A stretch of 62,863 bases of DNA from Acidobacteriota bacterium (GCA_019510095.1 JAEKLB010000022.1:1-62863), one strand, 5' to 3'. Shown: positions 10,511-26,670, numbered from the stretch's first letter. The notes: generated by a model not told the origin, from the sequence alone. Numbers and translations: made by a program.

Positions 10511-12847
10511 GTGACCATCACCAACACGGACGCGGACGAGCACGGAGCGCTGCACGGGGTGCGAGTGCTCGAAATCGCCGACAGCATCGCCGGTACGACC
10601 GCGGCCATGCTGCTCGGCGATCTCGGGGCTGACGTCGTGCGCGTCGAAGGGCAGAGGGCCTCGCTCGCCCGAGATCCGGGCTACGTCTGCTGGACGCGCA
10701 ACAAGATGGTCGTAGAGCTCGACCGGGCAACCCCTGCCGGGTTGACGGAGATCCGCCGCCTGGTGGCCGCGACCGACGTTGTGGTTACCGACCTGGGCCG
10801 CGCCGAGCTCGAGCAGCTGCGGCTCGACGCCGCCAGTGTGCGGGCAGTGAACGAACGCGTCGTGCACATCTGGGAGCCCGCCTATGGGCATGTTGGGCAG
10901 TGGAGCAACCTGCCCCACGACCATGTCGTGCTCGGAGCCGTCAGCGGGCACGCGGGCGTCGGGATAGGCGCCCCGGCCGGGTCGCCGCTCAAGCCGTCGT
11001 CGGTCGTTGTGCCACTGCTCGCCTACCAGCAGGGCGCCATGGCGGCGACGGCGGCCGTGGCCGGGCTCTTCCGTCGGGCACGCACCGGCGTGGCACAGGC
11101 GGCATCGACGAGCGGTCTGCAGTCCGTGGCCGCGATGCTCGCCGCGGTCATGGCCGATGCACCACGCAAGGCAGCGGGCGGCGGCAGCGGCGGCCTCCCG
11201 CACTATCGGATGTATCAGTGCGGCGACGGCGAATGGCTCTTCCTGGGCGCGCTCGCGCAGCCGTTCTTTCTGCGCGCGCTCGAGGTACTCGAGCTGATGG
11301 ATGTCATGGTCATGCCCGGTGTCGACGGCCAGTGGCTGAATCTTCAGCTGGCGGACGTCGCCCCAACCGTCATCGAACGCCTCGCGGCCCGCTTCCAGGA
11401 GCGTTCCCGCGACGAGTGGCTGAAGGTGCTCTACGAGGCCGACGTTCCCTGCGCCCCGCTGAGCACTCGCGACGAGTGGTTCGACAGCGAGACCGTGGCA
11501 CTCAACGGCTGGCGCGTGGCACGTCCGCATGCCGAGCTTGGCGTCGTTGACCTGCCGAGCCCGCCCCTGCGGATGTCGGACGCAGCGACGGAGGTGCGTC
11601 ACCTGGCGGATGGCACGCGGCGTGTCGCCCCGGGCACCTGCTGGACGGCGCCTCCGCCCGCCTTGCCGGCGGCGACTGCGCCCGAACTTGCCGACGCAGC
11701 GCCGCTCGCGGGCATCCGAGTCCTGGATCTGGCCGCCTTCGTTGCGGGGACCTTCGGCCCATCGATCCTCTGTGATCTCGGTGCCGAGGTCATCAAGGTC
11801 GAGGCACCGGGGGGTGACCCCTACCGAGACTTCCCAATCTCGTTCGCCGCCTTCAACCAGTCGAAGCGCGGCCTTGGGCTCGACATGAAGCAGGTCGAGG
11901 GCCGAGCTCTCTTCCTGGAGCTCGTCGCGGGTGTCGATGTGGTCGCCGATGGGGTGCGACCTGGCGTGCGCACGCGTCTCGGAACCGACGCCGCCACGCT
12001 TCACCGCGTGAACCCTCGCCTCGTCCGCTGCTCGGTGACAGGCTGGGGGGAAGTCGGCCCCCTGGCCGAAACACCGGCGTTCGACCCTCTCGTGCAGTCC
12101 CGCAGCGGCCTTGCCGTCGCACAGGGCGGCCCAACCACGCCTCAGCTGATCCAAGGGATGTTGGTGCACGACATCGGCACCGGGACCCTCGCCGCCCTCG
12201 GCATCCTTGCCGCGCTGTACCAGCGTGAGACCGCAACTGGCCGGGGCCAAGAGGTCGTGCTCTCCTTGGCCAGCGCCTCGACCTTCTTCCAATCGGGCGA
12301 GCTCACCCGCTACGCGTCGAAGCCGGTATCGCCTGTTGGCAACCCGGGTTGGGCAGGGCCATCCGCGGTCCGGCGCCTCTACGAGTGTGTCGACGGCTGG
12401 ATCGTGGTCGGGGCCCGGGACGAGATCGAGGCGAGGACACTCGTCGACGAGCTCGGTCTCGACGTGACGCTGGTGGACCCGACGTCGCCGCAGGCGGCGT
12501 TACTCGCCGAGAGCGTTGGCGCCGCCATCGCGTCGTGCTCCTCGGCCGAGCTGGTCGACCGCTTGTGCTTGCGCGGCATCCCGGCGGCCGCAGTGCTGCC
12601 GCGGGACCACGTCTTCACGGACCCGTGGCTGGCAGAGAACGGCATGTTCCACCACGTCGAGCAGCCGGATCTAGGAACGTGCACGCTGATGAGCGGCTAC
12701 ATCACGTGGCCCGGGGTCCCTGTGGGCTATCGGGCGTACTCACCGGGAATCGGTGCCAACAGCCGGGAGGTCCTCGCCGAGCTCGGCGTGGACGCCGGGC
12801 GCATCGACGCGCTGCTGGCGACCGGTGCCGTTCACGGCACCGCCTAG
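10511..12847 (+). CDS. Family III (CaiB/BaiF) CoA-transferase with two tandem domains
   Basis: Two copies of the signature: LHGVRVLEI...LGDLGADVVRVE...RNK and LAGIRVLDL...LCDLGAEVIKVE...NQSKR. Confidence 0.9.
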   Translation: MTITNTDADEHGALHGVRVLEIADSIAGTTAAMLLGDLGADVVRVEGQRASLARDPGYVCWTRNKMVVELDRATPAGLTEIRRLVAATDVVVTDLGRAELEQLRLDAASVRAVNERVVHIWEPAYGHVGQWSNLPHDHVVLGAVSGHAGVGIGAPAGSPLKPSSVVVPLLAYQQGAMAATAAVAGLFRRARTGVAQAASTSGLQSVAAMLAAVMADAPRKAAGGGSGGLPHYRMYQCGDGEWLFLGALAQPFFLRALEVLELMDVMVMPGVDGQWLNLQLADVAPTVIERLAARFQERSRDEWLKVLYEADVPCAPLSTRDEWFDSETVALNGWRVARPHAELGVVDLPSPPLRMSDAATEVRHLADGTRRVAPGTCWTAPPPALPAATAPELADAAPLAGIRVLDLAAFVAGTFGPSILCDLGAEVIKVEAPGGDPYRDFPISFAAFNQSKRGLGLDMKQVEGRALFLELVAGVDVVADGVRPGVRTRLGTDAATLHRVNPRLVRCSVTGWGEVGPLAETPAFDPLVQSRSGLAVAQGGPTTPQLIQGMLVHDIGTGTLAALGILAALYQRETATGRGQEVVLSLASASTFFQSGELTRYASKPVSPVGNPGWAGPSAVRRLYECVDGWIVVGARDEIEARTLVDELGLDVTLVDPTSPQAALLAESVGAAIASCSSAELVDRLCLRGIPAAAVLPRDHVFTDPWLAENGMFHHVEQPDLGTCTLMSGYITWPGVPVGYRAYSPGIGANSREVLAELGVDAGRIDALLATGAVHGTA

Positions 12848-12857
12848 CGTCGTCAGG

Positions 12858-13487
12858 TCAGCCGAACGTCGTGCCCAGCACGTCGATATAGGCGGCGGCC
12901 CAGTCGGTGGGATCGCCCTGGCCGCCGCTGGTCCACCACATGGCGTAGGCCCGGCGTCCGATGGCGTGCATCGCCACCATCATGACCTCGGCCTGGCGAC
13001 GGTCAGCAGTGGGACCCATTCGACGTGTCAGCTCGGCGATGATCCGCTCCTCGGCGTCCATCTCCTCGGCCGACGCGCTCGCTTCCGTCCGTTGCAGCGG
13101 CACGTCGTGCAACACCTGCCAGCGCTTCAGAACCGTGAGGCGCTCCTCTTCGGGAACGACCACGCTGGCGAGAAGGGCCTTACTCATGGCATCGAACGCG
13201 CTGACACCTTTGGGCTGTTCTTCAAGGTGAAGTAACAGGCGGTCGATCAGGGTCGCGCCCGAGGCCAGCAGCACCGCGTCCTTCGACGGGAAGTACCGGA
13301 AGAAGGTGCGCAGCGATATGCCGGCGGCGTTGGCGATCTCGGCGACTGTGACGTCGTCATAGCTTCGCTCGCTGAAGAGGTCGAGTGCGGCGCGCTCGAT
13401 TGTCAACCGCACCTGGCGCCGACGTTGACGTCGGAGGGACTCAGTCGGAACGACTTCTTCGGTGCTGACCATGGCCGGGGATCTCAC
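12858..13487 (-). CDS. TetR/AcrR family transcriptional regulator
   Basis: AALDLFSERSYDDVTVAEIANAAGISLRTFFRYFPSK helix-turn-helix. GTG overlaps the VOC stop; ATG 13472 is an alternative start. Confidence 0.92.
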   Translation of the reverse strand: MRSPAMVSTEEVVPTESLRRQRRRQVRLTIERAALDLFSERSYDDVTVAEIANAAGISLRTFFRYFPSKDAVLLASGATLIDRLLLHLEEQPKGVSAFDAMSKALLASVVVPEEERLTVLKRWQVLHDVPLQRTEASASAEEMDAEERIIAELTRRMGPTADRRQAEVMMVAMHAIGRRAYAMWWTSGGQGDPTDWAAAYIDVLGTTFG

Positions 13488-16925: not shown

Positions 16926-17723
16926 ATGCGCCTGGACATCGTCATTCCCGCTCACAACGAGCAGGACCGCATCGCCCGAACGTTGCGGGCCTACAGCGCC
17001 GTCCTGACCGACCCGTCTGTGCGGTTCCATGTCGCGCTCGACCAGTGCACCGATCGCACCGTGGACGTCGTCCGGGAGCAGGCCGTCCACGACGAGCGCA
17101 TCGTCGTGCACGAGTACCCGAAGCTGGGGAAGGGCGGTGTCGTCATGGAGACCTTCCGCCGTTGCGGCGGCGACGTGATCGGCTTCGTCGACGCCGACTG
17201 CTCCACGCCGCCAGCCGAGTACCTCCGCCTCGTCGACGTGGTCGCGGCCGGTGCCGATGTCGCGATCGCCTCTCGTTGGCACCCATCGGCGGTGGTGCCC
17301 CGGCCACGCTCACGAGCGCGCCGCGCCACCAGCTCGGTGTTCCCGTTGCTGGTGGCGGCGCTGTTCCGGCTCGGCGTTCGCGACACGCAGTGTGGCGCCA
17401 AGGTGGCGCGTCGAGCGGTGCTCGACACCGCCCTGCCGCTCCTGTCGTCACGGGACTTCCTGTTCGACGTCGACCTGCTCGTCGTCGCCAGCCACTTCGG
17501 GTACCGGGTCATCGAGGTGCCGACCGTCTGGGTCGACCGCGACGGCTCCCACTTGCACCCATTCGCCGACGCGCGGCGGATGGCAGCGTCGTCATTTCGC
17601 CTGTGGCTCCACCACCGCGTGCTGCCGTTGCCGGCTCCAGGGCAGCGCGAGGCGGTCGTCGACGCCGAGGTCATCGACCTCCGGGACCATGACGCCGAGG
17701 AGGTGCGCGATGCCGTCCGCTGA
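16926..17723 (+). CDS. Glycosyltransferase family 2, polyprenol-phosphate glycosyltransferase (DPM/DPG synthase-like)
   Basis: IVIPAHNEQ, GKGG, FVDADCST, ASR, DTQCGAK, FDVDLL. Confidence 0.88.
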   Translation: MRLDIVIPAHNEQDRIARTLRAYSAVLTDPSVRFHVALDQCTDRTVDVVREQAVHDERIVVHEYPKLGKGGVVMETFRRCGGDVIGFVDADCSTPPAEYLRLVDVVAAGADVAIASRWHPSAVVPRPRSRARRATSSVFPLLVAALFRLGVRDTQCGAKVARRAVLDTALPLLSSRDFLFDVDLLVVASHFGYRVIEVPTVWVDRDGSHLHPFADARRMAASSFRLWLHHRVLPLPAPGQREAVVDAEVIDLRDHDAEEVRDAVR

Positions 17724-18900
17724 CGTGGCGATGGTCGCGCCGTACCCGACGGCCGACGGTCGGGTCCGCTCCGGGGTCGAGTCCTACGTCGCCAGCCTCA
17801 CCGGTGCCATGGCCAAGGCCGGTGCTGAGGTCGTCGTCATCGCGCCGCACGAGGACGGCGAAGCCGATCGGCGTGTCCACGACGGCGTGCGGGTCGAGCG
17901 CTCCTTCCGTCGTGGCCCCGCGGCCCTGCCCGCGGCCGCCCGAGCGGCGGCCCGCAGTGGGGCGCCGGTGGTGCACCTGCAGCACGAGGTCTTTCTCTAC
18001 GGCGGGCCGGCTTCGGTGCCGGGACTTCCCTGGGCGCTGGCTCGCCTGCGGGGCGCCGGCTGCCCGGCGGTCGTGACCCTCCACCACGTGGTCGATCCTG
18101 CCGGCGTCGATCGCGACTTCACCCGCCTGCACCGTGTGCGGGTTCCGGCCGGCCCGGCGCGGGTGGCCCTGAGCGGCGTGCAGGCGGCGGTACGCCGACT
18201 GTCGTCGGTCGCAGTGGTGCACGAGCCGGGCTTCGCCCCGGTGGTACCCGGTGCTCGGGTGATCCCGCTCGGCATCGAGCCGACTCCGCCCGGCGACCGC
18301 GTCACCGAGCGGGCCCGGCTCGGCCTCGACGACGAACGCCTCACGGTCCTGTGCTTCGGGTTCCTCAGCCCGTACAAGGGCTTGGAGGCGGCGCTGGCGG
18401 CCGCCGAGTTGGCCGCCGCCGACGTCGAGCTCGTGGTGGCGGGCGGACCCCATCCCCGCCTCGTCGGTCGGGACAGCTACGCCGACCAGCTGGTCGCCAG
18501 AGGATCGACCGCGGCCCGGTTCACCGGCTTCGTCGACGACCGGGACGTGCCGGCCTGGTTCGCCGCAGCCGACATCGTCCTCGTCCCCTACCCGCGCCCG
18601 TTCTCGAGCAGCGGACCGCTCGGCCTGGCCCTCGGGTACGGCCGGCCCGTGCTGCTGTCGTCGGCGATGGCCGCGTGCGTCGGAGCGCCCGAGCTCGGGA
18701 CGTCATGTGAGCCCCGGGCGCTCGCGGCACGACTCGTCGAGCTGGCCCGCCACCCCGAGGCGAGGGCCGGTCTGGCTACCGCGTCCTCGGAGCTGGCCCG
18801 CGGGCGGACCTGGTCGTCGGTGGCGGAGCGCCATCTCGAGCTCTACGAGGAGGTGCGGCATGGGGCGCGTTCTGGTCACGACCGCCTACCGGTGGTCTGA
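17710..18900 (+). CDS. Glycosyltransferase family 4 (GT-B)
   Basis: SGVESY, HLQHE, CFGFLSPYKGLE, SSSGPLGLALGYGRPV. Start trimmed to ATG 17710. Confidence 0.85.
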   Translation: MPSADVAMVAPYPTADGRVRSGVESYVASLTGAMAKAGAEVVVIAPHEDGEADRRVHDGVRVERSFRRGPAALPAAARAAARSGAPVVHLQHEVFLYGGPASVPGLPWALARLRGAGCPAVVTLHHVVDPAGVDRDFTRLHRVRVPAGPARVALSGVQAAVRRLSSVAVVHEPGFAPVVPGARVIPLGIEPTPPGDRVTERARLGLDDERLTVLCFGFLSPYKGLEAALAAAELAAADVELVVAGGPHPRLVGRDSYADQLVARGSTAARFTGFVDDRDVPAWFAAADIVLVPYPRPFSSSGPLGLALGYGRPVLLSSAMAACVGAPELGTSCEPRALAARLVELARHPEARAGLATASSELARGRTWSSVAERHLELYEEVRHGARSGHDRLPVV

Positions 18901-19807
18901 TCCGGCCGGTCGCGCCGTCGTCCAGTCCCTCTCGGAAGGGCTCCCGGGCTGGGAGATCCGGTCGGCGGCGCTGCCCGACAGGCTCGACCTCGGCCGGGCA
19001 GTCCGGGGGGTTGACGCTGTCGTCGTGGCGGGCGGCCCGGCGTTCGGCGCGCCGCTGGCCGGCGTTGCCCGCCTCGCCCGCTCGGCGCGCCGTCACGGTC
19101 GTGCCGTGGCCCTGATGGGCGTCGGAGTACCGGCGGTCGCCTCATCAGGTCGGGCGGCTCGGCAGATCGGGCGCCTCGGCGACGGCGCTGATCTGCTCAT
19201 CGTGAGCGACGAGGTCGCCGCCGGCCTGTTGAGCCGCAGTGGCGCCACCCCACCCTTCCGCATCGGCGCCGATCCGGTGTGGACCTTGCTCGATCGCTGG
19301 GCGGGCTCGCCGAGCGAACGGGGTGGCGCGGTCACGGTGGTCGTGCCGCATCCGCCTGCCGCCCGGGCGCTCGCGGTCGCCGGCCGCCTTGCCGCCCTCG
19401 CCGTCGACTGCACGGTGTTGTCGTGGACCGCGGGCCTTGGCGTGCTCGATCTCCGGGACGCTCTCGCCGCATCCGGCGGCGTCGCCGTCGTCTGCCAGCT
19501 GCACGCGCTGATTGCCGCCGCCGCCGCCGGGGTGCCCGCGGTCGCCGTGGGCGACGAGCCGGGGCTGGAGCCCCTGGCCCGGCGACTGCGGCAGCCATGG
19601 GTGCCGTGGGACGTCGACGGCCCCGCCCTCGATGCCGCCGTCGGCGCGACCAGCGCAGCCGGTCCTCCCGCAGCGGCGGTGAAGGCGGAGGTGGCCCTGG
19701 CCGAGGAGGCGATGCGGCTCCTGCGAATCGTGCTGTCGCGCGGTGAGACCGACGAGATGGAGACGCTCGTCGGACTGCCGATGGGACCGGTGTCGCTGGC
19801 ATGGTGA
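18860..19807 (+). CDS. Polysaccharide pyruvyl transferase-like (CsaB/WcaK-like) protein, divergent
   Basis: DAVVVAGG, ALMGVGV, IVSDE, IGADPV, QLHALIAAAAAGVPAVAV. The family fit is approximate. Confidence 0.6.
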   Translation: MGRVLVTTAYRWSDPAGRAVVQSLSEGLPGWEIRSAALPDRLDLGRAVRGVDAVVVAGGPAFGAPLAGVARLARSARRHGRAVALMGVGVPAVASSGRAARQIGRLGDGADLLIVSDEVAAGLLSRSGATPPFRIGADPVWTLLDRWAGSPSERGGAVTVVVPHPPAARALAVAGRLAALAVDCTVLSWTAGLGVLDLRDALAASGGVAVVCQLHALIAAAAAGVPAVAVGDEPGLEPLARRLRQPWVPWDVDGPALDAAVGATSAAGPPAAAVKAEVALAEEAMRLLRIVLSRGETDEMETLVGLPMGPVSLAW

Positions 19808-22479
19808 GCGCTGCCGTCACGCTGCGGCCAGGCACCGCGCCGGACCGAGCTCGAACTGTCGCCGTCGAGCAACTGCTGGTGGCGGCCGGGCAGATCGGCG
19901 CCGGCGCCGGCAACCTGCTGTTCGCGATCGTCATGGCGCGGCTCCTGGCGCCGGCAGCCTTCGCCCACCTCACCGCCTTTCTCGGTCTGTTCGTGCTTGC
20001 CGGTCTCCCCTCCACGAGTCTCAGCGCGGTGGGGGCGTTGGCGCCCGCTGGGTCGGGCCGGCTCGACGCCCTCCTGGGTCGAGCGGGCCTCGCCGTTGCC
20101 GCCGCGCTCGTGGGCTTCAGCCCGTGGCTGGCCCGGGATCTCGGTTTGCCGGTGGGCGTGGTGATCGCCTTGGCGATGGCCGCCCCCGTGGTCGCACCGT
20201 TGGGCCTGCAGCGGGGCCGCCTCTTCGGCGTCGGTCGTCACGCCGATCTGCTGGCCTCGTTGCTGGCCGAGCCGGTTGGCCGGCTCACCATCGGTGTGCT
20301 CCTTGGCCTGGGCTTCGGCGCGACCGGCGCCGCCTTCGGTGTGGCGGTGGCTGCGGTGCTCGCGCTGCGCGTGTCCTACGGCCCCATGGCGCCATCGCTC
20401 CCGGGCGTCGAGGGTGTGGCCACCGCCGGCCTCGGCGGGACCGTCGCCGCATTCTTGTTGCTGGCCGTCGTCCAGACCCAGGACCTCCTGTTCGCCAACC
20501 GGCTGCTCGGCGGCGCCGAGGCCGGCCGCTTCGCAGTGCTCTCCACCCTCGGCGGCATCGCCGCGTTCGCCACGCTGACGGTGCCGCTCGTGCTGTTGCC
20601 GAGAGCGGCCAGCGGCCAGCCGCGGGCCCTGCCGATCGCGGTTGGGATCGCGGCCGCGATCGGCGGCACGGCGGTCGTCGTGGGCGCCGTGGCCCACGAT
20701 CTGCTGACCCGATCGCTGTTCGGTGCCCGCTACGGGGCGGTCGCCCCACTGCTGGCTCCGTACCTCCTGGCGATGGCCCTCCTCGGCGTCAGCCGTGTCC
20801 TGGTGGCACACCGCTGTGCGCGGGGCGAGGCGTCGTCGGCAGTCGTCGTCGTCGGACTCGTGGCCGCCGGTCAGGCGTGGCTGATCGTCCACTTCGCCCA
20901 CAGCGCGGCTGCCGTCGCCGGTTCGACGCTGTCGGCCACCGCCACGGCCACCGCCGTGCTCGGGGGCATGGAGGTTGCCGAAAGGATGCGGTGGCGGGCA
21001 CGGCTGGCCGAGCGGGTGGCGACCGCCGGCAACTCGGTCGTCGTGGGCCTCGCTGGCATCACCGCCGTCGGGCTCGCAGTACGGCTGGTCGTGCCCCGAG
21101 GTCTCTGGCTCGACGAAGCCACCAGCGTCTTCCAGGCGAAGATGGGCTTCTCGGAGATGTTGACGAACTTGCGGACGACCGACGTCCATCCGCCCCTCTA
21201 CTTCACCGTGCTGTGGGGCGCCGTACGACTGTTCGGCAGCAGCGAGATGGCAGTGCGGCTTCCTTCCATCGTGGCCGGGCTCGCCCTGTTGCCGGTCCTG
21301 TACCTCTGCGGTGAGGAGCTCTACGACCGCCGCACCGGCCTCGTGGCCGCCGCGATCGGCAGCGTGTCGCCGCTTCTCGTCTGGTACTCACAAGAAGCCC
21401 GGATGTACGCGCTGTTCATGGTCTTCGCCGTGGCCGCCGTCTGGCTGCAGGCCCGGGCCATACGCCGCGGGCGAACGCTCGACTGGATGCTCTACGCCGT
21501 GGTCACCGCCGCGCTCGTCTGGACGCAGTACTTCGCCGTGTTGCAGGTCCTGGTGCAGCAGGCTGCCTTCCTCGTGGTCATCGCCCGGCGCCAGGCACGG
21601 CGCACGCTCGACCGGCGCGTGATCTACGGATGGCTTGGCTCCGCTGCCCTCGCCGGGTTGGCGCTCGCGCCCCTCGTGCCGTTCGCTCATCACCAGTTCA
21701 GCGTCAACCAGCACGCCGGCCGAGGTTTCCTCGCCGCCTCGCAGGCCGGTGCCGCCGTGTCGGGATTGGCCCACCGCCCGTCGGTGTACACGCTCGCCGC
21801 CAACCTCGTCTGGGCGGCGTGGGGCTACCACTCTGACGCGGTGATGGCCGCCGCTGTCGCGCTGTGGCCGGGGCTGATGTTCCTCGGCCTGCTCGCCCTC
21901 GGACGCCGGCGACGACCGCCGACGACGCTGCTGGTCGCCGCCTGCCTCGTCCCGGTACTGGCGCTGTTCGCCATTGGCATGGTGAAGCGTGACCTGTTCG
22001 ACGTGCGCTACTTCTCCGGCACGGCCGCACTTGGTGTCGTGCTCCTGGCCCGGCTGATGACAGGGACAGCTCGCCACCGCATCGGCCTGGCGCTGCTGAG
22101 CGTCATCATCGTCACCGGGCTGGTGGTGGGCCTGGTCGACCAGCAGACCAACGGCTCGAACCCCCGGCGCTACTCGTTCCGGGAGGCGACGCACGCGCTC
22201 AACCGCGCCGGGCGCGACGGCGACACGGTCCTCTATGCGCCAGCCGACGTCGGCCCGGTCGTCGGCTACTACGACCGCGGTCGTTATCGCCTCCGCCCGC
22301 TCAGCGACCACGTCGCTCGCGACAGCAGCCGCGGCCGGCTCTTCGTGCTCGTCTCGCCCCGGCTGCTGGACCCGGGCGAGGCCAAGCGGATCGGCGACGT
22401 CCTGGCCCAGCTCCGGCAGCGACGGCGCGTCACCCGCGTGCTGCGATTCGACAACGTCCAGGTGTGGGAGCTCACATGA
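19801..22479 (+). CDS. Fusion of Wzx/MOP-like flippase (N-terminal ~390 aa) and GT-C glycosyltransferase (GT39/PMT/ArnT-like)
   Basis: N-half has about 12 hydrophobic helices (NLLFAIVMARLLAPAAF, QDLLFANRLL); C-half has GLWLDEA, DVHPPLYF, RLPS, YSQEARMY. Confidence 0.8.
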   Translation: MVSAAVTLRPGTAPDRARTVAVEQLLVAAGQIGAGAGNLLFAIVMARLLAPAAFAHLTAFLGLFVLAGLPSTSLSAVGALAPAGSGRLDALLGRAGLAVAAALVGFSPWLARDLGLPVGVVIALAMAAPVVAPLGLQRGRLFGVGRHADLLASLLAEPVGRLTIGVLLGLGFGATGAAFGVAVAAVLALRVSYGPMAPSLPGVEGVATAGLGGTVAAFLLLAVVQTQDLLFANRLLGGAEAGRFAVLSTLGGIAAFATLTVPLVLLPRAASGQPRALPIAVGIAAAIGGTAVVVGAVAHDLLTRSLFGARYGAVAPLLAPYLLAMALLGVSRVLVAHRCARGEASSAVVVVGLVAAGQAWLIVHFAHSAAAVAGSTLSATATATAVLGGMEVAERMRWRARLAERVATAGNSVVVGLAGITAVGLAVRLVVPRGLWLDEATSVFQAKMGFSEMLTNLRTTDVHPPLYFTVLWGAVRLFGSSEMAVRLPSIVAGLALLPVLYLCGEELYDRRTGLVAAAIGSVSPLLVWYSQEARMYALFMVFAVAAVWLQARAIRRGRTLDWMLYAVVTAALVWTQYFAVLQVLVQQAAFLVVIARRQARRTLDRRVIYGWLGSAALAGLALAPLVPFAHHQFSVNQHAGRGFLAASQAGAAVSGLAHRPSVYTLAANLVWAAWGYHSDAVMAAAVALWPGLMFLGLLALGRRRRPPTTLLVAACLVPVLALFAIGMVKRDLFDVRYFSGTAALGVVLLARLMTGTARHRIGLALLSVIIVTGLVVGLVDQQTNGSNPRRYSFREATHALNRAGRDGDTVLYAPADVGPVVGYYDRGRYRLRPLSDHVARDSSRGRLFVLVSPRLLDPGEAKRIGDVLAQLRQRRRVTRVLRFDNVQVWELT

Positions 22480-24005
22480 TCGAAGCTGATCCTCGCCTCG
22501 AGCCCCTGCGGTGGGATCCTGCCGAGTCATGGCGGGCAAGCCGGCGCAAGCTGCGCCTCCTCGCACCGCTGAACGTCGTGGCCGCCATCTGGTACTTCAC
22601 GTGGTTGCTGCGACCGGGTCGCGTCGGCAACCCCATCCTCTACGGCTTCCTCGTCGCCGCCGAGGTCTTCAACCTGGTCCAGGCGGCCGGCTTCTGGTGG
22701 ACGTGCTGGGGCGCCCGCCGGCGCCGGCCGGTGCCATCGTGGCCCGATCCTCGTGTCGCCGTCGACGTCCTGATCCCGGTGTACAACGAGCCTGTCGGCG
22801 TGGTCGAGCCGACGGTCGCGGCCGCTCGCCGGCTTGGCGGGGCCGACGTCACCGTGTGGCTGCTCGACGACGCCAACCGTGACGACCTCGCTGCCCTTGC
22901 CGCTCGTCACGGTGTCCGCTACCTGCGGCGGCCCCATCACGTCGGCGCCAAGGCGGGCAACCTCAACCACGCACTCGCCCGCACGACGGCGCCCTTCGTC
23001 GTCGTCCTCGACTGCGATCACGTCGCCGACCAGCGGTTGCTCGATGAGACGCTCGGGCATTTCGTGGAGCCCGACGTCGCGTTCGTGCAGACGCCGCAGT
23101 ACTACGCCAATGCCGACCAGGGCCGGCTGGCGTCGGCGGCCTGGAGCCAGCAGGCGCTGTTCTTCGGCGGCATCGCCCGCGGCAAGGACGCCATGGGGTC
23201 GATGTTCTGCTGCGGCACAAACGTGGTGTTCAGGCGGGAGGCGTTGGCTGCAGTGGGTGGGTTCCCGGAAGGGTCGCTCACCGAGGACTTCGAGCTCTCG
23301 TTGCGCCTGCACGAGCAGGGCTGGCGGTCGGTGTACGTGCCGGTGGTGCTGGCCCGTGGCCTGGGCCCGGAGGACGCCGCGTCGTACGTGAGTCAGCAGC
23401 AGCGCTGGGCGCTGGGTTGCCTGTCGGCGCTCCCCGCGGCAGCCCGGGCCGACCTCCCGTGGCGGCTGCGGCTGCAATACGTGCTCTCGGGCCTGTTCTT
23501 CCTCTCCGGTTGGACGTTCCTCGTGTACATGGCCCTCCCCGCCGTCCGACTGCTGCTCGGCGCGCAGCCGCTCGCCGGCGCTGGTGCCGACCAGTTCCTC
23601 GTGCACTTCGCGCCCTACTGGGGCTTGTCCCAGGCAGCGGTGGCCGTGGTTGGCGGCGGCTCCTACACCTTCGCCACCTTCACCCTGCTGATCGCGACAT
23701 CGTGGATCCACATCGTGGCCAGCGTGCTCTCGCTCCTCGGTCGCACCGGCCGGTTCGTGGTCACGCCCAAGGAGGGCACCGGCCGACCGCAACCAATGGC
23801 GGTTGCCCCCGCGCTCGGCGCCATGGCCGTCTTGGTGTTCGCGGCGATCACCGGTCTGGCACGCGACCAGTCGCCGGGCACGTTGAACAACGTGGCGTTC
23901 GCCGCCATGCACATCGCGCTCTTGGGTGCCGGAGTGTGGCCAGCGCTCGTGCCATCGCCGGCGGCGATGCCGCTCCCCGCGCTCGAGGAGGTCCGGGCCG
24001 CCTAA
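22476..24005 (+). CDS. Cellulose synthase-like processive GT2 (BcsA/CslA-like catalytic subunit), no PilZ domain
   Basis: PVYNEP, LLDD, AKAGNLN, LDCDH, QTPQ, FCCGT, TED and QQQRW, with flanking TM helices. ATGA overlap with the upstream gene. Confidence 0.9.
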   Translation: MIEADPRLEPLRWDPAESWRASRRKLRLLAPLNVVAAIWYFTWLLRPGRVGNPILYGFLVAAEVFNLVQAAGFWWTCWGARRRRPVPSWPDPRVAVDVLIPVYNEPVGVVEPTVAAARRLGGADVTVWLLDDANRDDLAALAARHGVRYLRRPHHVGAKAGNLNHALARTTAPFVVVLDCDHVADQRLLDETLGHFVEPDVAFVQTPQYYANADQGRLASAAWSQQALFFGGIARGKDAMGSMFCCGTNVVFRREALAAVGGFPEGSLTEDFELSLRLHEQGWRSVYVPVVLARGLGPEDAASYVSQQQRWALGCLSALPAAARADLPWRLRLQYVLSGLFFLSGWTFLVYMALPAVRLLLGAQPLAGAGADQFLVHFAPYWGLSQAAVAVVGGGSYTFATFTLLIATSWIHIVASVLSLLGRTGRFVVTPKEGTGRPQPMAVAPALGAMAVLVFAAITGLARDQSPGTLNNVAFAAMHIALLGAGVWPALVPSPAAMPLPALEEVRAA

Positions 24006-24018
24006 CTACCGTGGCCGA

Positions 24019-25065
24019 ATGCGACTGGTCACGGCAGCGGTGGCCGTCGTGATCGCCGCGCTGTTGGCGGCTGGTAGCGGGGGGACGCTGGGCGACAGCT
24101 TGCCGCTCGACGCCCGGGCAGTACGGGACGCCCGTACCTTCCTCGACGCCTATGAGCGGCGTGATGGCCGCGTCGTGCGAACCGACCAGGGAGGTGACAC
24201 GGTCAGCGAGGGGCAGGGATATGCGCTCCTGGCGGCCGTCGCCATCGGTGACCGGGGCCGATTCGCGTCGGCGTGGCGTTGGTCGGCCGCGCACCTCGCC
24301 CGGGCCGACGGGCTCCTGTCGTGGCACTGGAAGGACGGGCGAGTGCTCGACCCCGAATCGGCCACCGACGCTGACCTCGCGGTGGCGTGGGCGCTCACCC
24401 TCGCCGACCGTCGGTTCGGGATCCCGGCGTACGGCGCCGCTGCGGCGCGTCTGGGCGCCGCGATCGTTGCCGGCGAGAGCACGAACCGGCCCCATGGCCC
24501 GGTGCTCGTGGCCGGGCCGTGGGCCCGGGCGGCGCCACCGGTGGTGAACCCCAGCTACCTCGCCCCCCAGGCGGCTGCCGTGCTACCGGGTCCCGTCGTG
24601 GCTGCCGACCGCGTCGCCATCCTCGGGCTGGTCGCCAGCGGTCGGCTGCCGTCGGACTGGGCCAACCTCGATGCAGATGGTGGCCTGGTGCGAGCCAGCG
24701 GCGACCGAGGCCGGTTCGGCTTGGACGCCCAGCGGCTGCCGGTGTTGCTGGCCGCCTCGTGCGACGCTCGCGACGTTGCCGCGGCCGCTCGCCTGTGGCC
24801 GGCGGTCGCCCGGCTCGACGACGACGGTGCCGCCCTTGCCTACGAGGCCGACGGCACTCGGGCGTCGCCGTACACGAGCCCCCTCGGCCTGGTGGCCGCC
24901 GCCGCGACGGCCGGCGCGGCGGGCGACAAGAGCGCGGCACGGGCCCTCCTCGACGCGGCCGACCAGCTGGCGGGCACCCGGCCGACCTACTACGGCGCCG
25001 CGTGGGCCGCCCTCGGTCGCCTCCTGCTCACCACCCGACGCCTGGCGACCTGCCCGGTGCTCTGA
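24019..25065 (+). CDS. Glycoside hydrolase family 8 (BcsZ-like endoglucanase), secreted
   Basis: Signal peptide, TVSEGQGYALL (catalytic Glu), SATDADL, NPSY, DAQR. Confidence 0.88.
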   Translation: MRLVTAAVAVVIAALLAAGSGGTLGDSLPLDARAVRDARTFLDAYERRDGRVVRTDQGGDTVSEGQGYALLAAVAIGDRGRFASAWRWSAAHLARADGLLSWHWKDGRVLDPESATDADLAVAWALTLADRRFGIPAYGAAAARLGAAIVAGESTNRPHGPVLVAGPWARAAPPVVNPSYLAPQAAAVLPGPVVAADRVAILGLVASGRLPSDWANLDADGGLVRASGDRGRFGLDAQRLPVLLAASCDARDVAAAARLWPAVARLDDDGAALAYEADGTRASPYTSPLGLVAAAATAGAAGDKSAARALLDAADQLAGTRPTYYGAAWAALGRLLLTTRRLATCPVL

Positions 25066-25080: not shown

Positions 25081-26670
25081 TCAGCCGCCCAGCACGATGG
25101 CGCGGGCGACGGCGTTCGCCGGCAGCGTCACCGGGGCACTGGCGGGCGGCGCCGCCGCCGCGCCGACGCTGAACGGGGCAACGGTGCCGTCCTCGGCCAG
25201 GGTGTAGCCGCCGGTGCCGCCGGTGGTCAGCACCATCGAGCGGGCGACGTCCCGGTTGAGCCAGTAGGTGCTGAGCGCCACGCCGGCAGGCAGGGGACTG
25301 GTGCCGATGGCGAAGGGGTGGACGCCGCCCCAGCCGTCGAGGACGTAGCCGCCGGCGCCGGTTGGCAGGACAGCTACCGCTCGGGCGATGTCCCACTGGT
25401 CCCAGCCAGCGGAGAGGGTGGCGCTCGGGGGCATCGGATGGGTGCCGATGGCGAACGGGTGGACGCCGCCCCAGCCGTCGAGCACGTAGCCGCCGGTGCC
25501 ATCGGGCAGCAACGCGCTCGAGCGAGCGATGTTCCAGCCGGGCCACGCGTCCGAGCTGCGTACTGCAGCCGGGCCGTGCAGGGCGCCGTAGCCGTCCAGC
25601 ACGTACGTCGCCGGTGCCTCGTCCAGCGCCGCGAAGTGGGAACGGAGGCCCACGCCGAACGACGTCGGTGCCCCGTCATAGGTACCGATCATGCCGGGGC
25701 CGCCGGCGCAGTCAGCGGTGTTCCACGACCACCCGAGGTACGACACGCCGTGGCGGTCTGCCCAAGCCATGTAGGCATCGACGAACCCGTGGGCGCAGTC
25801 GTTCTCGCCGATCTCGCCGGTCACGACCGGGACCTTGGCGGCGACAGGCGCCACGGTCTGATCCCAGCACGCCGCCGTGTTGCAGCCCGAGAAGTTGTAG
25901 AGGTGGGCCGACGCCGCGAGCTGACCGGCGGGGTCGGTCGGCGCCCAGGTGAGCCATTGGGAGAGGTCGCCGGCCCAACCGAGGCCGGCGGCGAGCACGG
26001 GCTGGGTGGCGCCGGTGGCGCGGACGGCATCGACGAGTTGCTGCATCCCTGCGGTGGGCCAGCCGGTGCTCGTCGTGCAGCCGTCGCGCCAGCACGACCA
26101 CGAGATGTCGTGGGGTTCGTTGTAGAGGTCGAACACCACGTTCGGGTCGGCGCGGAACGACCCGGCGACCGACGACCAGAACGCCGGCGAGTGGTCGGCG
26201 TCGGCCATGGGCTGTTGGCTCAGCGCTCGGGTGGTGCCGGGCGCCGACCAGTGGAGATCGAGGATGGCAATCAGCCCGTCGGCGTGGAGCTCGTCCACGT
26301 AGTGGTGCACGGCCGCCTGGTAGTTGGTGCCGCTGTAGGCCGGGCTGACGCCGTTGATGCCGAGCCAGCAGTCCTCGTTGAGTGGCACTCGTACGGCGTT
26401 CATGTGCCAGGCGGCCATGGCGTCCACCGACGTCTGGTCGGAGGGGCCGTCGAAGAGGCCCCAACCCTGGGCACAGGCGTACTCCAGCCCGGACCGGTTG
26501 GCGCCGACCAGGCGCAGTGTCGTCCCGGAACCGTCGACGAGGTGGTTGCCGACGACCCGCACGCCGGTCGGGCCGGCGGCACTGGCGTGGGCCGGCGGGG
26601 TGGGGGTGCTCAGCAGGGAGGCGACCATCGACGCGACGAAGAGAAGGGCGAAGGAGGACGTTCTGCGCAT
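25081..26670 (-). CDS. Glycoside hydrolase family 5 (cellulase-like) with C-terminal beta-propeller-like repeats
   Basis: Signal peptide, VRVPLNEDCW, LDLHW, DLYNEPH (acid/base) and VTGEIG (nucleophile); repeated GGYVLDGWGGVHPF units. Confidence 0.9.
   Translation of the reverse strand: MRRTSSFALLFVASMVASLLSTPTPPAHASAAGPTGVRVVGNHLVDGSGTTLRLVGANRSGLEYACAQGWGLFDGPSDQTSVDAMAAWHMNAVRVPLNEDCWLGINGVSPAYSGTNYQAAVHHYVDELHADGLIAILDLHWSAPGTTRALSQQPMADADHSPAFWSSVAGSFRADPNVVFDLYNEPHDISWSCWRDGCTTSTGWPTAGMQQLVDAVRATGATQPVLAAGLGWAGDLSQWLTWAPTDPAGQLAASAHLYNFSGCNTAACWDQTVAPVAAKVPVVTGEIGENDCAHGFVDAYMAWADRHGVSYLGWSWNTADCAGGPGMIGTYDGAPTSFGVGLRSHFAALDEAPATYVLDGYGALHGPAAVRSSDAWPGWNIARSSALLPDGTGGYVLDGWGGVHPFAIGTHPMPPSATLSAGWDQWDIARAVAVLPTGAGGYVLDGWGGVHPFAIGTSPLPAGVALSTYWLNRDVARSMVLTTGGTGGYTLAEDGTVAPFSVGAAAAPPASAPVTLPANAVARAIVLGG
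25301..25496 (-). repeat. Two near-identical 55-bp units, 141-nt period, inside the GH5 C-terminal domain
   Basis: 25301-25355 and 25442-25496 differ at 2 positions. Confidence 0.85.

Follow-up and report, generated by a model that had tools for sequence, protein, structure and literature searches.

The 62,863-nucleotide contig JAEKLB010000022.1:1-62863 of Acidobacteriota bacterium assembly GCA_019510095.1 (the whole stretch analyzed, hereafter the window) carries a gene that encodes a Wzx/PST-type MOP flippase domain and a GT-C glycosyltransferase domain as one chain. We are highly confident that this fusion is real and that it is composed of these two parts, and the whole is a genuine two-domain inner-membrane protein. 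A sequence-only reading of the window had described a single 892-residue open reading frame (ORF) with a Wzx-like N-terminal half (N-half) and a PMT/ArnT-like C-terminal half (C-half), joined by a basic linker, and had remarked that the two functions are normally found in separate proteins. A single frame, both domain assignments and an Arg-rich linker were all recovered here, and the remark is true of characterized systems, GacK/GacL and AglR/AglS being separate proteins.

One reading frame spans both domains

Third-position G+C content (GC3) was 0.84-0.96 in a single frame from about position 19900 to 22450, spanning both halves, and second-position G+C content in the same frame was 0.42-0.64 (150-nucleotide windows). 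We looked for a phase change or frame switch at the junction by positional G+C content and saw none. The junction is occupied by the Arg-rich linker ERMRWRARLAERV at about residues 394-406, where the AlphaFold2 (AF2) model described below has a predicted local distance difference test (pLDDT) score under 50 (residues 398-409). The linker was alignable across 51 homologs, with 38-74 residues between its flanking anchors; its top-residue frequency was 0.37, compared with 0.63 in the N-half and 0.65 in the C-half. The two halves themselves are under equal conservation, with a median identity to the window protein of 48% and 49%, respectively. Given the known topologies of WzxE and ArnT, a 12-helix MOP domain would end in the cytoplasm and a GT-C domain would start there, and a linker of roughly 14 residues is compatible with that.

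More than 100 homologs of approximately 880-940 residues covered 97-100% of the query at 45-56% identity. We also mapped the proteins of the cassette by tblastn onto 80 loci from GTDB species representatives, together with contigs picked by identity. The MOP match lay upstream of the GT-C match in 55 loci, and in 54 of these the two were in the same frame with no intervening stop; homologs are therefore not always split. Complete chromosomes and isolates are among the fused loci.

The alternative is an artefact, in which loss of a stop codon, a frameshift or an assembly error made one gene out of two neighbors in a metagenome-assembled genome (MAG). It draws support from the exceptional locus, a 4-kb metagenome contig (L014) in which the halves lie in different frames with a 47-nucleotide overlap; the frameshift there is genuine or else a sequencing error. 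Against it stand the uniform GC3 in one frame, the 54 fused loci, the linker that aligns in 51 homologs, and the same junction in an independent sequence from a near-identical strain (P0001), where 605/609 residues are identical (99%) and the junction is read through. The artefact reading is close to refuted, and we consider it exceedingly improbable. One seemingly stand-alone close homolog of the N-half (P0124) was rejected as evidence of a natural split because it is a frameshifted copy of the fused gene.

The N-terminal half is a divergent MOP domain

The identity of the N-half was not apparent from direct family searches. It had no match in an NCBIfam scan, the precomputed Pfam matches of its homologs consisted of PF13231 only, and searches of PDB sequences with a full-length profile and with an N-half profile returned nothing useful. 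A single-sequence AF2 model of the N-half had a pLDDT of 47 and was unusable. With residues 1-400 as the query, an exhaustive phmmer search across 1.84 billion representatives retrieved 560 relatives. Close relatives were mostly about 900 residues long, and distant ones (E values of 1e-11 to 1e-17) were stand-alone proteins of 404-443 residues. All 10 of the stand-alone relatives that we tested scored above the gathering threshold for PF01943 (Polysacc_synt) and/or PF13440 (Polysacc_synt_3).

A profile built on 16 fused N-halves that represent different families was then aligned, using hhalign, with a profile of stand-alone, Polysacc_synt-positive proteins. The two aligned end to end over 379 columns with a probability of 99.94% (E = 1.2e-36). 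Residues N38, L49, P51, D228, A241-G242 and G251 of the window protein paired with the invariant N30, L41, P43, D235, A248-G249 and G258 of the stand-alone proteins, and 34 columns of the N-half were invariant across the 16 taxa. The domain architecture suggested by the sequence-only reading, Polysacc_synt/MATE-like plus PMT_2, was thus borne out in part: PMT_2 scored above its cut-off, and Polysacc_synt was not matched directly by the N-half yet was reached through this profile alignment.

An AF2 model of the whole protein, built with 51 homologs, had a mean pLDDT of 87 and a predicted TM-score (pTM) of 0.66. Confidence was low only at residues 1-13, 398-409 and 647-657. Residues 30-395 form about 12 long helices with pLDDT mostly above 90. 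When the model was compared with the PDB using Foldseek, both halves were matched with a probability of 1.00. The best MOP match of the N-half was the lipid III flippase WzxE (9g9p, 9g9n), with about 415 aligned columns and a TM-score to target of 0.67-0.69, followed by MurJ and MATE transporters (0.54-0.69 with WzxE included). From the modeled fold and the profile alignment, the N-half is best described as a complete but divergent Wzx/PST-type MOP domain, for which flippase function is predicted.

The same MOP clade occurs in other apparent fusions among the matches of the N-half search, any of which may be true genes or merged gene calls. These include a triple fusion of a pyruvyl-transferase-like domain, MOP and GT-C (P0132), a fusion of MOP to a family 4 glycosyltransferase (GT4; P0225), fusions of MOP to a family 2 glycosyltransferase (GT2; P0226, P0238), and a protein combining pyruvyl-transferase-like, MOP and 3-keto-disaccharide-hydrolase-like domains (P0217).

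The C-terminal half is a PMT_2-type GT-C enzyme

PMT_2 (PF13231) was the sole Pfam family detected in the protein, scoring 65.6 bits against a cut-off of 26.1 over residues 463-624. The motifs named in the sequence-only reading are all present, namely WLDEA at residues 436-440, HPPLY at 463-467 and QEARMY at 531-536. W436, D438 and E439 were invariant in 51 sequences and lie straight after the first GT-C helix (residues 412-430), which places the D438-E439 pair (21112-21117) in the first outer loop. Other invariant residues of this domain include D461-P465, W528, Y529, E532 and R534-Y536. The C-terminal soluble domain (residues 791-892) was modeled as five to six strands plus helices (DSSP) with pLDDT of 78-92, and its invariant residues include F793, P814, Y823, Y824 and W889. 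The catalytic Asp-Glu loop and this soluble domain are presumably oriented outward.

Foldseek matched the C-half to ArnT (5f15/5ezm) with a TM-score to target of 0.51-0.53 over about 585 columns, and also to Pmt4 (9i5k, 0.47) and to STT3/PglB, at E values of 3e-6 to 6e-4. Prediction and structural search therefore agree with the folds originally proposed, MOP for the N-half and GT-C for the C-half. The hallmarks of GT39 (PF02366 PMT, MIR and PMT_4TMC) were not found in a Pfam scan, the STT3 family had no Pfam match in the window protein, and among NCBIfam models a mannosyltransferase model scored 60 bits against a cut-off of 900 and ArnT was unmatched. We therefore predict that the C-half is a PMT_2-type GT-C enzyme that is neither GT39 proper nor an ArnT equivalog. 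NCBI names the homologs only as "glycosyltransferase family 39 protein", and in JGI they carry two COG names, "O-antigen/teichoic acid export membrane protein" and "ArnT-like".

A fold of this kind could also serve protein glycosylation, with secreted or envelope proteins receiving the flipped sugar or oligosaccharide from the GT-C domain, as in actinobacterial Pmt/Ppm1, PgfS/PgfM and archaeal Agl systems. The PMT_2 fold and DE motif would suit this role, the best Foldseek E values of the C-half were to the oligosaccharyltransferases STT3 and PglB, the small GT2 encoded in the same operon weakly resembles AglJ and PgfS, and assembly on a monophosphate carrier followed by GT-C transfer is the logic of archaeal N-glycosylation. 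However, the window protein has no match to PF02366 PMT, MIR or STT3, the STT3 TM-scores (0.35-0.41) are below those of ArnT, and the only invariant neighbors of the GT-C domain are a processive beta-glycan synthase and a family 8 glycoside hydrolase (GH8). We consider protein glycosylation improbable.

The fusion is encoded in a six-gene cassette

Six closely spaced genes form the operon, and the fusion is the fourth of them (Table 1). Its ATG overlaps the upstream stop (ATGGTGA), and the ATG of the next gene overlaps its own stop (ATGA); the operon is translationally coupled. A scan for an operon promoter and terminator performed no better than on shuffled sequences.

Table 1. Coordinates of the fusion, its domains and the neighboring genes in the window
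Feature	Position	Strand	Basis or remark
MOP-GT-C fusion ORF, 892 codons	19801-22479	+	ATG 19801 to TGA
Fusion residues 1-397, Wzx/PST-type MOP flippase domain (predicted), about 12 transmembrane helices	19801-20991	+	hhalign, Foldseek, pLDDT
Fusion residues 398-411, Arg-rich inter-domain linker, variable	20992-21033	+	pLDDT, homolog alignment
Fusion residues 412-790, GT-C (PMT_2) membrane domain	21034-22170	+	PF13231, Foldseek, invariant residues
Fusion residues 791-892 plus stop, C-terminal alpha/beta soluble domain, presumably extramembrane	22171-22479	+	DSSP on model, invariant residues
Small GT2, 265 residues, polyprenyl-phosphate sugar synthase-like, cassette gene 1	16926-17723	+	Pfam Glycos_transf_2
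GT4 (GT-B fold), start approximate, ATG 17710 overlaps GT2 stop	17710-18900	+	Pfam Glyco_trans_1_4, Glyco_transf_4
Pyruvyl-transferase-like gene (PvT; CsaB/PS_pyruv_trans)	18860-19807	+	PF04230
BcsA-like processive GT2 without PilZ	22476-24005	+	PDB BcsA 7lby/4hg6
GH8 endoglucanase, BcsZ-like, N-terminal signal anchor, start probably ATG 24019	24019-25065	+	PF01270 at E 2e-26
Secreted GH5 cellulase, convergent with operon	25081-26670	-	PF00150 at E 2e-30

Upstream of the fusion, the only PDB sequence relatives of the small GT2 were Dol-P-Man synthase (5mlz) and ArnC (9bhc/8vxh), at E values of about 1e-9. Its best NCBIfam models were ArnC, Dol-P-hexose transferase, AglJ and PpgS, each below cut-off. 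It was present in every locus with the fusion (type A). The pyruvyl-transferase-like gene (PvT) has an uncertain start, either ATG 18860 or, for the longest ORF, GTG 18707. It matched the CsaB model TIGR03609 weakly, and its homologs in other cassettes had an unqualified match to PF04230.

Downstream, the BcsA-like GT2 (CesA) matched PDB BcsA (7lby/4hg6) at E values of 1e-49 to 7e-46 and TIGR03030 CelA at 253 bits, below cut-off. Its 513-residue translation contains the motifs DDA, DCD, TED and QQQRW, and its BcsA alignment stops near chain residue 520-625. No PilZ domain was detected in it by Pfam, and no BcsB-like gene was found in the cassette, where neither BcsB nor BcsC was recognized. 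The GH8 protein scored 85 bits against NF008305 BcsZ, below cut-off.

The GH5 gene beyond the operon is also found near the cassette in four other loci (L027, L043, L086, L092), but not in all relatives. The C-terminal ~200 residues of its product have no Pfam match and contain about four repeats of a GGYVLDGWGGVHPF-like motif.

Co-location of a GT2, a MOP flippase domain and a GT-C enzyme, the composition of three-component glycosylation systems, was found in at least 36 loci. This composition could also be seen in classical Wzx/Wzy-type terms, with the MOP domain flipping an undecaprenyl-diphosphate-linked repeat unit and the GT-C domain acting as polymerase or ligase. The closest structural relative of the N-half, WzxE, does flip a diphosphate-linked trisaccharide, and repeat-unit assembly typically involves GT4 and pyruvyl transferases. 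However, PMT_2 enzymes are not known to act as polymerases, and the initiating enzyme here is a DPMS/ArnC-like GT2, a maker of monophosphate-linked sugars. Among the Pfam families listed for three cassettes plus 10-kb flanks, and among those of the neighbors in the window, there was no phosphoglycosyl transferase, Wzy/O-antigen ligase or chain-length regulator. Because these enzymes are missing in and near the cassettes, we judge a Wzx/Wzy pathway to be quite unlikely, more so than protein glycosylation.

A reduced cassette retains the GT-C domain without the MOP module

In 16 loci with 5-8 kb of upstream sequence (type B; L074-L077, L080-L083, L085-L088 and L091-L094, e.g., L091:7974-9518 and the genes that follow), the GT-C enzyme is a stand-alone protein of approximately 480-520 residues. 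In nearly all of these, the BcsA-like GT2 and GH8 follow directly. By tblastn, MOP and GT4 were found upstream of the stand-alone GT-C in 0/16, and GT2 and PvT were also absent, save for a weak GT2-like match (L074) and a weak PvT-like match (L088). In types A and B alike, GT-C adjoins CesA in nearly every locus that extends past GT-C, and the pair of GT-C and synthase seems to be the system's invariant core.

A maximum-likelihood tree with 82 rows, built on the GT-C domain, placed the stand-alone copies in at least three well-supported clades nested among the fused ones, and the fewest fused-to-alone changes on the tree was 3. The simplest reading is an old fusion followed by repeated loss of the entire module of MOP, GT2, GT4 and PvT. 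Since MOP is absent wherever GT2 and GT4 are absent, it appears to be functionally tied to the three cytoplasmic enzymes; since GT-C is kept with the synthase and GH8 without MOP, it appears to be tied to these two. The fusion would therefore join two modules of a larger polysaccharide operon and not constitute a self-contained flip-and-transfer device.

In one Thermoleophilia clade, a 455-residue protein that joins a GtrA_DPMS_TM domain with a DPMS-like GT2 is encoded 2-3 kb upstream of the stand-alone GT-C (L080:4911-6278, +; L082:4587-5765, -). This would be an alternative supply of a lipid-sugar synthase plus flippase.

These patterns bear on a further possibility, that the halves perform separate tasks. 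The GT-C domain would then serve the BcsA-like synthase, either with a housekeeping polyprenyl-phosphate sugar or by acting on the glucan end (for example, transferring or anchoring a lipid-primed chain), and the MOP domain would export another lipid-linked glycan, the product of GT2, GT4 and PvT, so that the fusion only co-localizes or co-regulates them. Persistence of the GT-C-CesA-GH8 set without MOP, GT2, GT4 and PvT in at least three clades nested among the fused ones speaks for this possibility, as does the alternative GtrA plus GT2 gene being near only one of these clades. On the other hand, the in-frame fusion in 54/55 loci, the equal constraint on the two halves and the apparent triple PvT-MOP-GT-C fusion (P0132) argue for a functional link, and the cassette encodes no other acceptor-side enzyme for a flipped glycan. 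We regard separate tasks as unlikely, although less so than protein glycosylation.

In two Acidimicrobiia loci (L088:6961-9524 and L090:139-2436), a PvT-like gene lies directly before the stand-alone GT-C with no MOP between them, which is an intermediate architecture. A degraded MOP remnant beside a stand-alone GT-C was considered and rejected, as there was no upstream MOP match by tblastn and the long upstream open frame in L080 runs across a kinase gene on the opposite strand.

The cassette is patchily distributed

The complete GT2-GT4-PvT-fusion-CesA-GH8 cassette was found in 36 of the fetched loci, from at least two actinobacterial classes. Acidimicrobiales and Solirubrobacteraceae contigs share identical gene order and 4-nucleotide overlaps and have unrelated flanks. 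The range also includes Ilumatobacteraceae, Iamiaceae, Thermoleophilaceae, Baekduia, Capillimicrobium, Nakamurella, Frankiaceae and Nitriliruptorales. Isolates with the fusion include Aeromicrobium sp. IC_218 and "Ca. Solirubrobacter pratensis" URHD0082, and public databases hold hundreds of fusion copies.

Among the 40 genomes nearest to that of the window, from the same genus to the same order, we found no fusion, only GT-C paralogs at 26-43% identity, and the CesA neighbor was absent at seven sampled paralog loci. The fusion is missing from all 40, and its distribution is therefore patchy. The cassette has a G+C content of 73.0% compared with 69.4% for the rest of the window, and Acidimicrobiales copies fall into two distant clades of the GT-C tree. 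Taken with the apparent absence from the nearest genomes, these results suggest that the cassette was horizontally transferred.

Two side observations concern single loci. A GT-C-synthase fragment in a MAG labeled Chloroflexota (L058; DATLRG010000751.1) is sister to the Acidimicrobiales locus L043 with 100% support, a placement explained either by wrong binning or by recent transfer. A same-order relative has, on one contig, a stand-alone 494-codon ORF with weak similarity to the N-half (E = 5e-4) and, about 6 kb away, a 578-codon GT-C paralog (G025:C762:4472-5575 and 11953-13140, both on the - strand); this pair may be an unfused counterpart.

In the literature surveyed, which was mostly open access, we found no description of a MOP/Wzx-GT-C fusion or of this cassette, and the fusion has apparently never been studied before.

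A proposed route from lipid carrier to exopolysaccharide

The mechanism that we propose starts from what the analysis showed, namely both folds, a catalytic motif, the conservation of the fusion and the linkage of the genes; the remaining steps we infer. By similarity, the DPMS/ArnC/AglJ-like GT2 would attach a sugar to polyprenyl phosphate at the membrane's cytoplasmic side. The GT4 and pyruvyl-transferase-like enzymes may then extend and pyruvylate this lipid-linked unit in the cytoplasm; GT4 enzymes and pyruvyl transferases need nucleotide diphosphate sugars and phosphoenolpyruvate. The MOP domain, on the strength of its fold and homology, would flip the lipid-linked unit, and its co-occurrence with GT2, GT4 and PvT is consistent with a polyprenyl-(di)phosphate-linked glycan as cargo. 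Outside the membrane, the tethered GT-C domain, whose fold and motif suit this role, would take the flipped unit as donor, and the DPMS/ArnC-like GT2 in the same operon points to a polyprenyl-phosphate sugar donor. From the invariant gene linkage, the leading candidate for the acceptor is the beta-glucan that the neighboring BcsA-like synthase would make and export and that GH8 would trim. The product would be a decorated, possibly acidic, cellulose-like exopolysaccharide. The fusion would enforce 1:1 proximity of flipping and transfer, and direct channeling from flippase to transferase, which the sequence-only reading had put forward, may follow from it.

We hold the parts of this proposal with different strengths. 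That the fusion flips and transfers a glycan made by the upstream enzymes is, in our view, fairly probable. That the acceptor is the glucan of the synthase is a tentative assignment that may well be wrong. The overall mechanism, a flippase-transferase fusion that decorates the glucan of the synthase, lies between the two, and we see the chances as evenly balanced.

Several observations weigh against the proposal. Residues 1-400 match no Pfam family even at E ≤ 10. The PvT of the window matches PF04230 at an E value of 3e-5 and 24.5 bits, just below the cut-off of 25.3. Bacterial MOP flippases classically carry diphosphate-linked oligosaccharides, whereas the cassette encodes no phosphoglycosyl transferase. 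Donor, acceptor and flipping are assigned from similarity and gene context for every member of the family. Finally, because GT-C is kept in loci without the MOP module, it is not strictly dependent on the donor from that module, and the halves may serve partly separate tasks; in the reduced cassette, GT-C may use another donor or have a role with the synthase that is independent of a flipped glycan.

A broader version of the proposal places the cassette outside the three textbook pathways, as a hybrid route in which the BcsA-like synthase extrudes a beta-glucan and the covalently coupled flippase-transferase decorates it en bloc outside the membrane with a short pyruvylated oligosaccharide built on polyprenyl monophosphate, following AglJ-type logic. 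GT-C and the synthase would then be the invariant core of a wider system in several Terrabacteria phyla, with MOP, GT2 and GT4 modules fused in combinations that vary by lineage. We consider this version speculative and rather unlikely, if somewhat less so than separate tasks for the halves.

Significance and comparison with known systems

How a flipped lipid-linked sugar is passed from a flippase to an outward-facing transferase is a general question for Wzx, GtrA and GT-C systems, and so is the identity of most Wzx substrates. A stable, widely conserved Wzx-GT-C chain offers a defined 1:1 complex for cryo-electron microscopy and for in vitro flipping and transfer assays, and cultured carriers exist, such as Aeromicrobium sp. 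IC_218 and Solirubrobacter. Our results suggest that abundant soil Actinomycetota (Acidimicrobiia and Thermoleophilia) make a decorated cellulose-like exopolysaccharide by combining synthase-dependent and lipid-carrier routes. Such a polymer would be relevant to soil aggregation, biofilm biology and the engineering of modified cellulose.

In Streptococcus pyogenes, where GlcNAc side chains are added to the group A carbohydrate, GacK is a Wzx-family protein with a proposed role in flipping GlcNAc-P-undecaprenol for the GT-C enzyme GacL, which decorates polyrhamnose. The GacI/GacJ-GacK-GacL system resembles ours in having a polyprenyl-phosphate sugar made by a GT2, a proposed Wzx-family flippase and GT-C transfer outside the membrane onto a separately made polysaccharide. 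It differs in that GacK and GacL are separate proteins, whereas here they correspond to one chain, and in that its backbone is an ABC-exported polyrhamnose, whereas a BcsA-like synthase probably makes the one here. The present cassette also adds a GT4 and a pyruvyl-transferase-like gene, and the donor may therefore exceed a monosaccharide.

In Haloferax volcanii, oligosaccharides initiated by AglJ are assembled on dolichol monophosphate before flipping. As in the cassette, the Agl systems (AglJ/AglG/AglI/AglE and AglD-AglR-AglS) start a glycan on a monophosphate carrier with a DPM1-like GT2 and extend it with soluble glycosyltransferases; AglR is implicated in membrane crossing, and AglS or AglB transfers outside. 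AglR is Wzx-like and AglS is a GT-C enzyme. The small GT2 of the window matches the AglJ and Dol-P-hexose transferase models weakly. In contrast, the Agl systems are archaeal, have protein-linked glycans as acceptors and consist of separate components, and no window protein reaches the NCBIfam Agl cut-offs.

Individual domains have closer counterparts in fold than in sequence. WzxE (9g9p, 9g9n, 9g95) aligns over about 415 columns with a TM-score to target of 0.58-0.69 and has about 410 residues and 12 transmembrane helices. Its identity to the N-half is 17-18%, and it stands alone, pairs with Wzy and a phosphoglycosyl transferase, and carries the diphosphate-linked trisaccharide of enterobacterial common antigen. 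ArnT (GT83; 5f15/5ezm) shares with the C-half the GT-C fold, the PMT_2 Pfam family and an acidic motif in the first outer loop, but at 13% identity and with a different C-terminal soluble domain, and lipid A is an unlikely acceptor here. No ArnT is known to have an N-terminal MOP domain. The Bcs core (BcsA plus BcsZ) is mirrored in the downstream genes: the synthase matches the catalytic and membrane core of BcsA, with D, DxD, TED and QxxRW, and a BcsZ-like GH8 follows. Unlike in Bcs, there is no PilZ here and BcsB and BcsC are unrecognized, and the GT-C gene that always precedes the synthase is not found in described Bcs operons.

The cassette as a whole is most comparable to the three-component extracytoplasmic glycosylation systems (GtrB/A/C, CsbB/GtcA/YfhO, GacI/K/L and AglD/R/S), in which a GT2, a flippase and a GT-C enzyme are likewise encoded together. 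It differs in that a MOP-type flippase domain is covalently fused to the GT-C enzyme, in 54 of 55 loci, and in that the cassette is built around a cellulose-synthase-like module.

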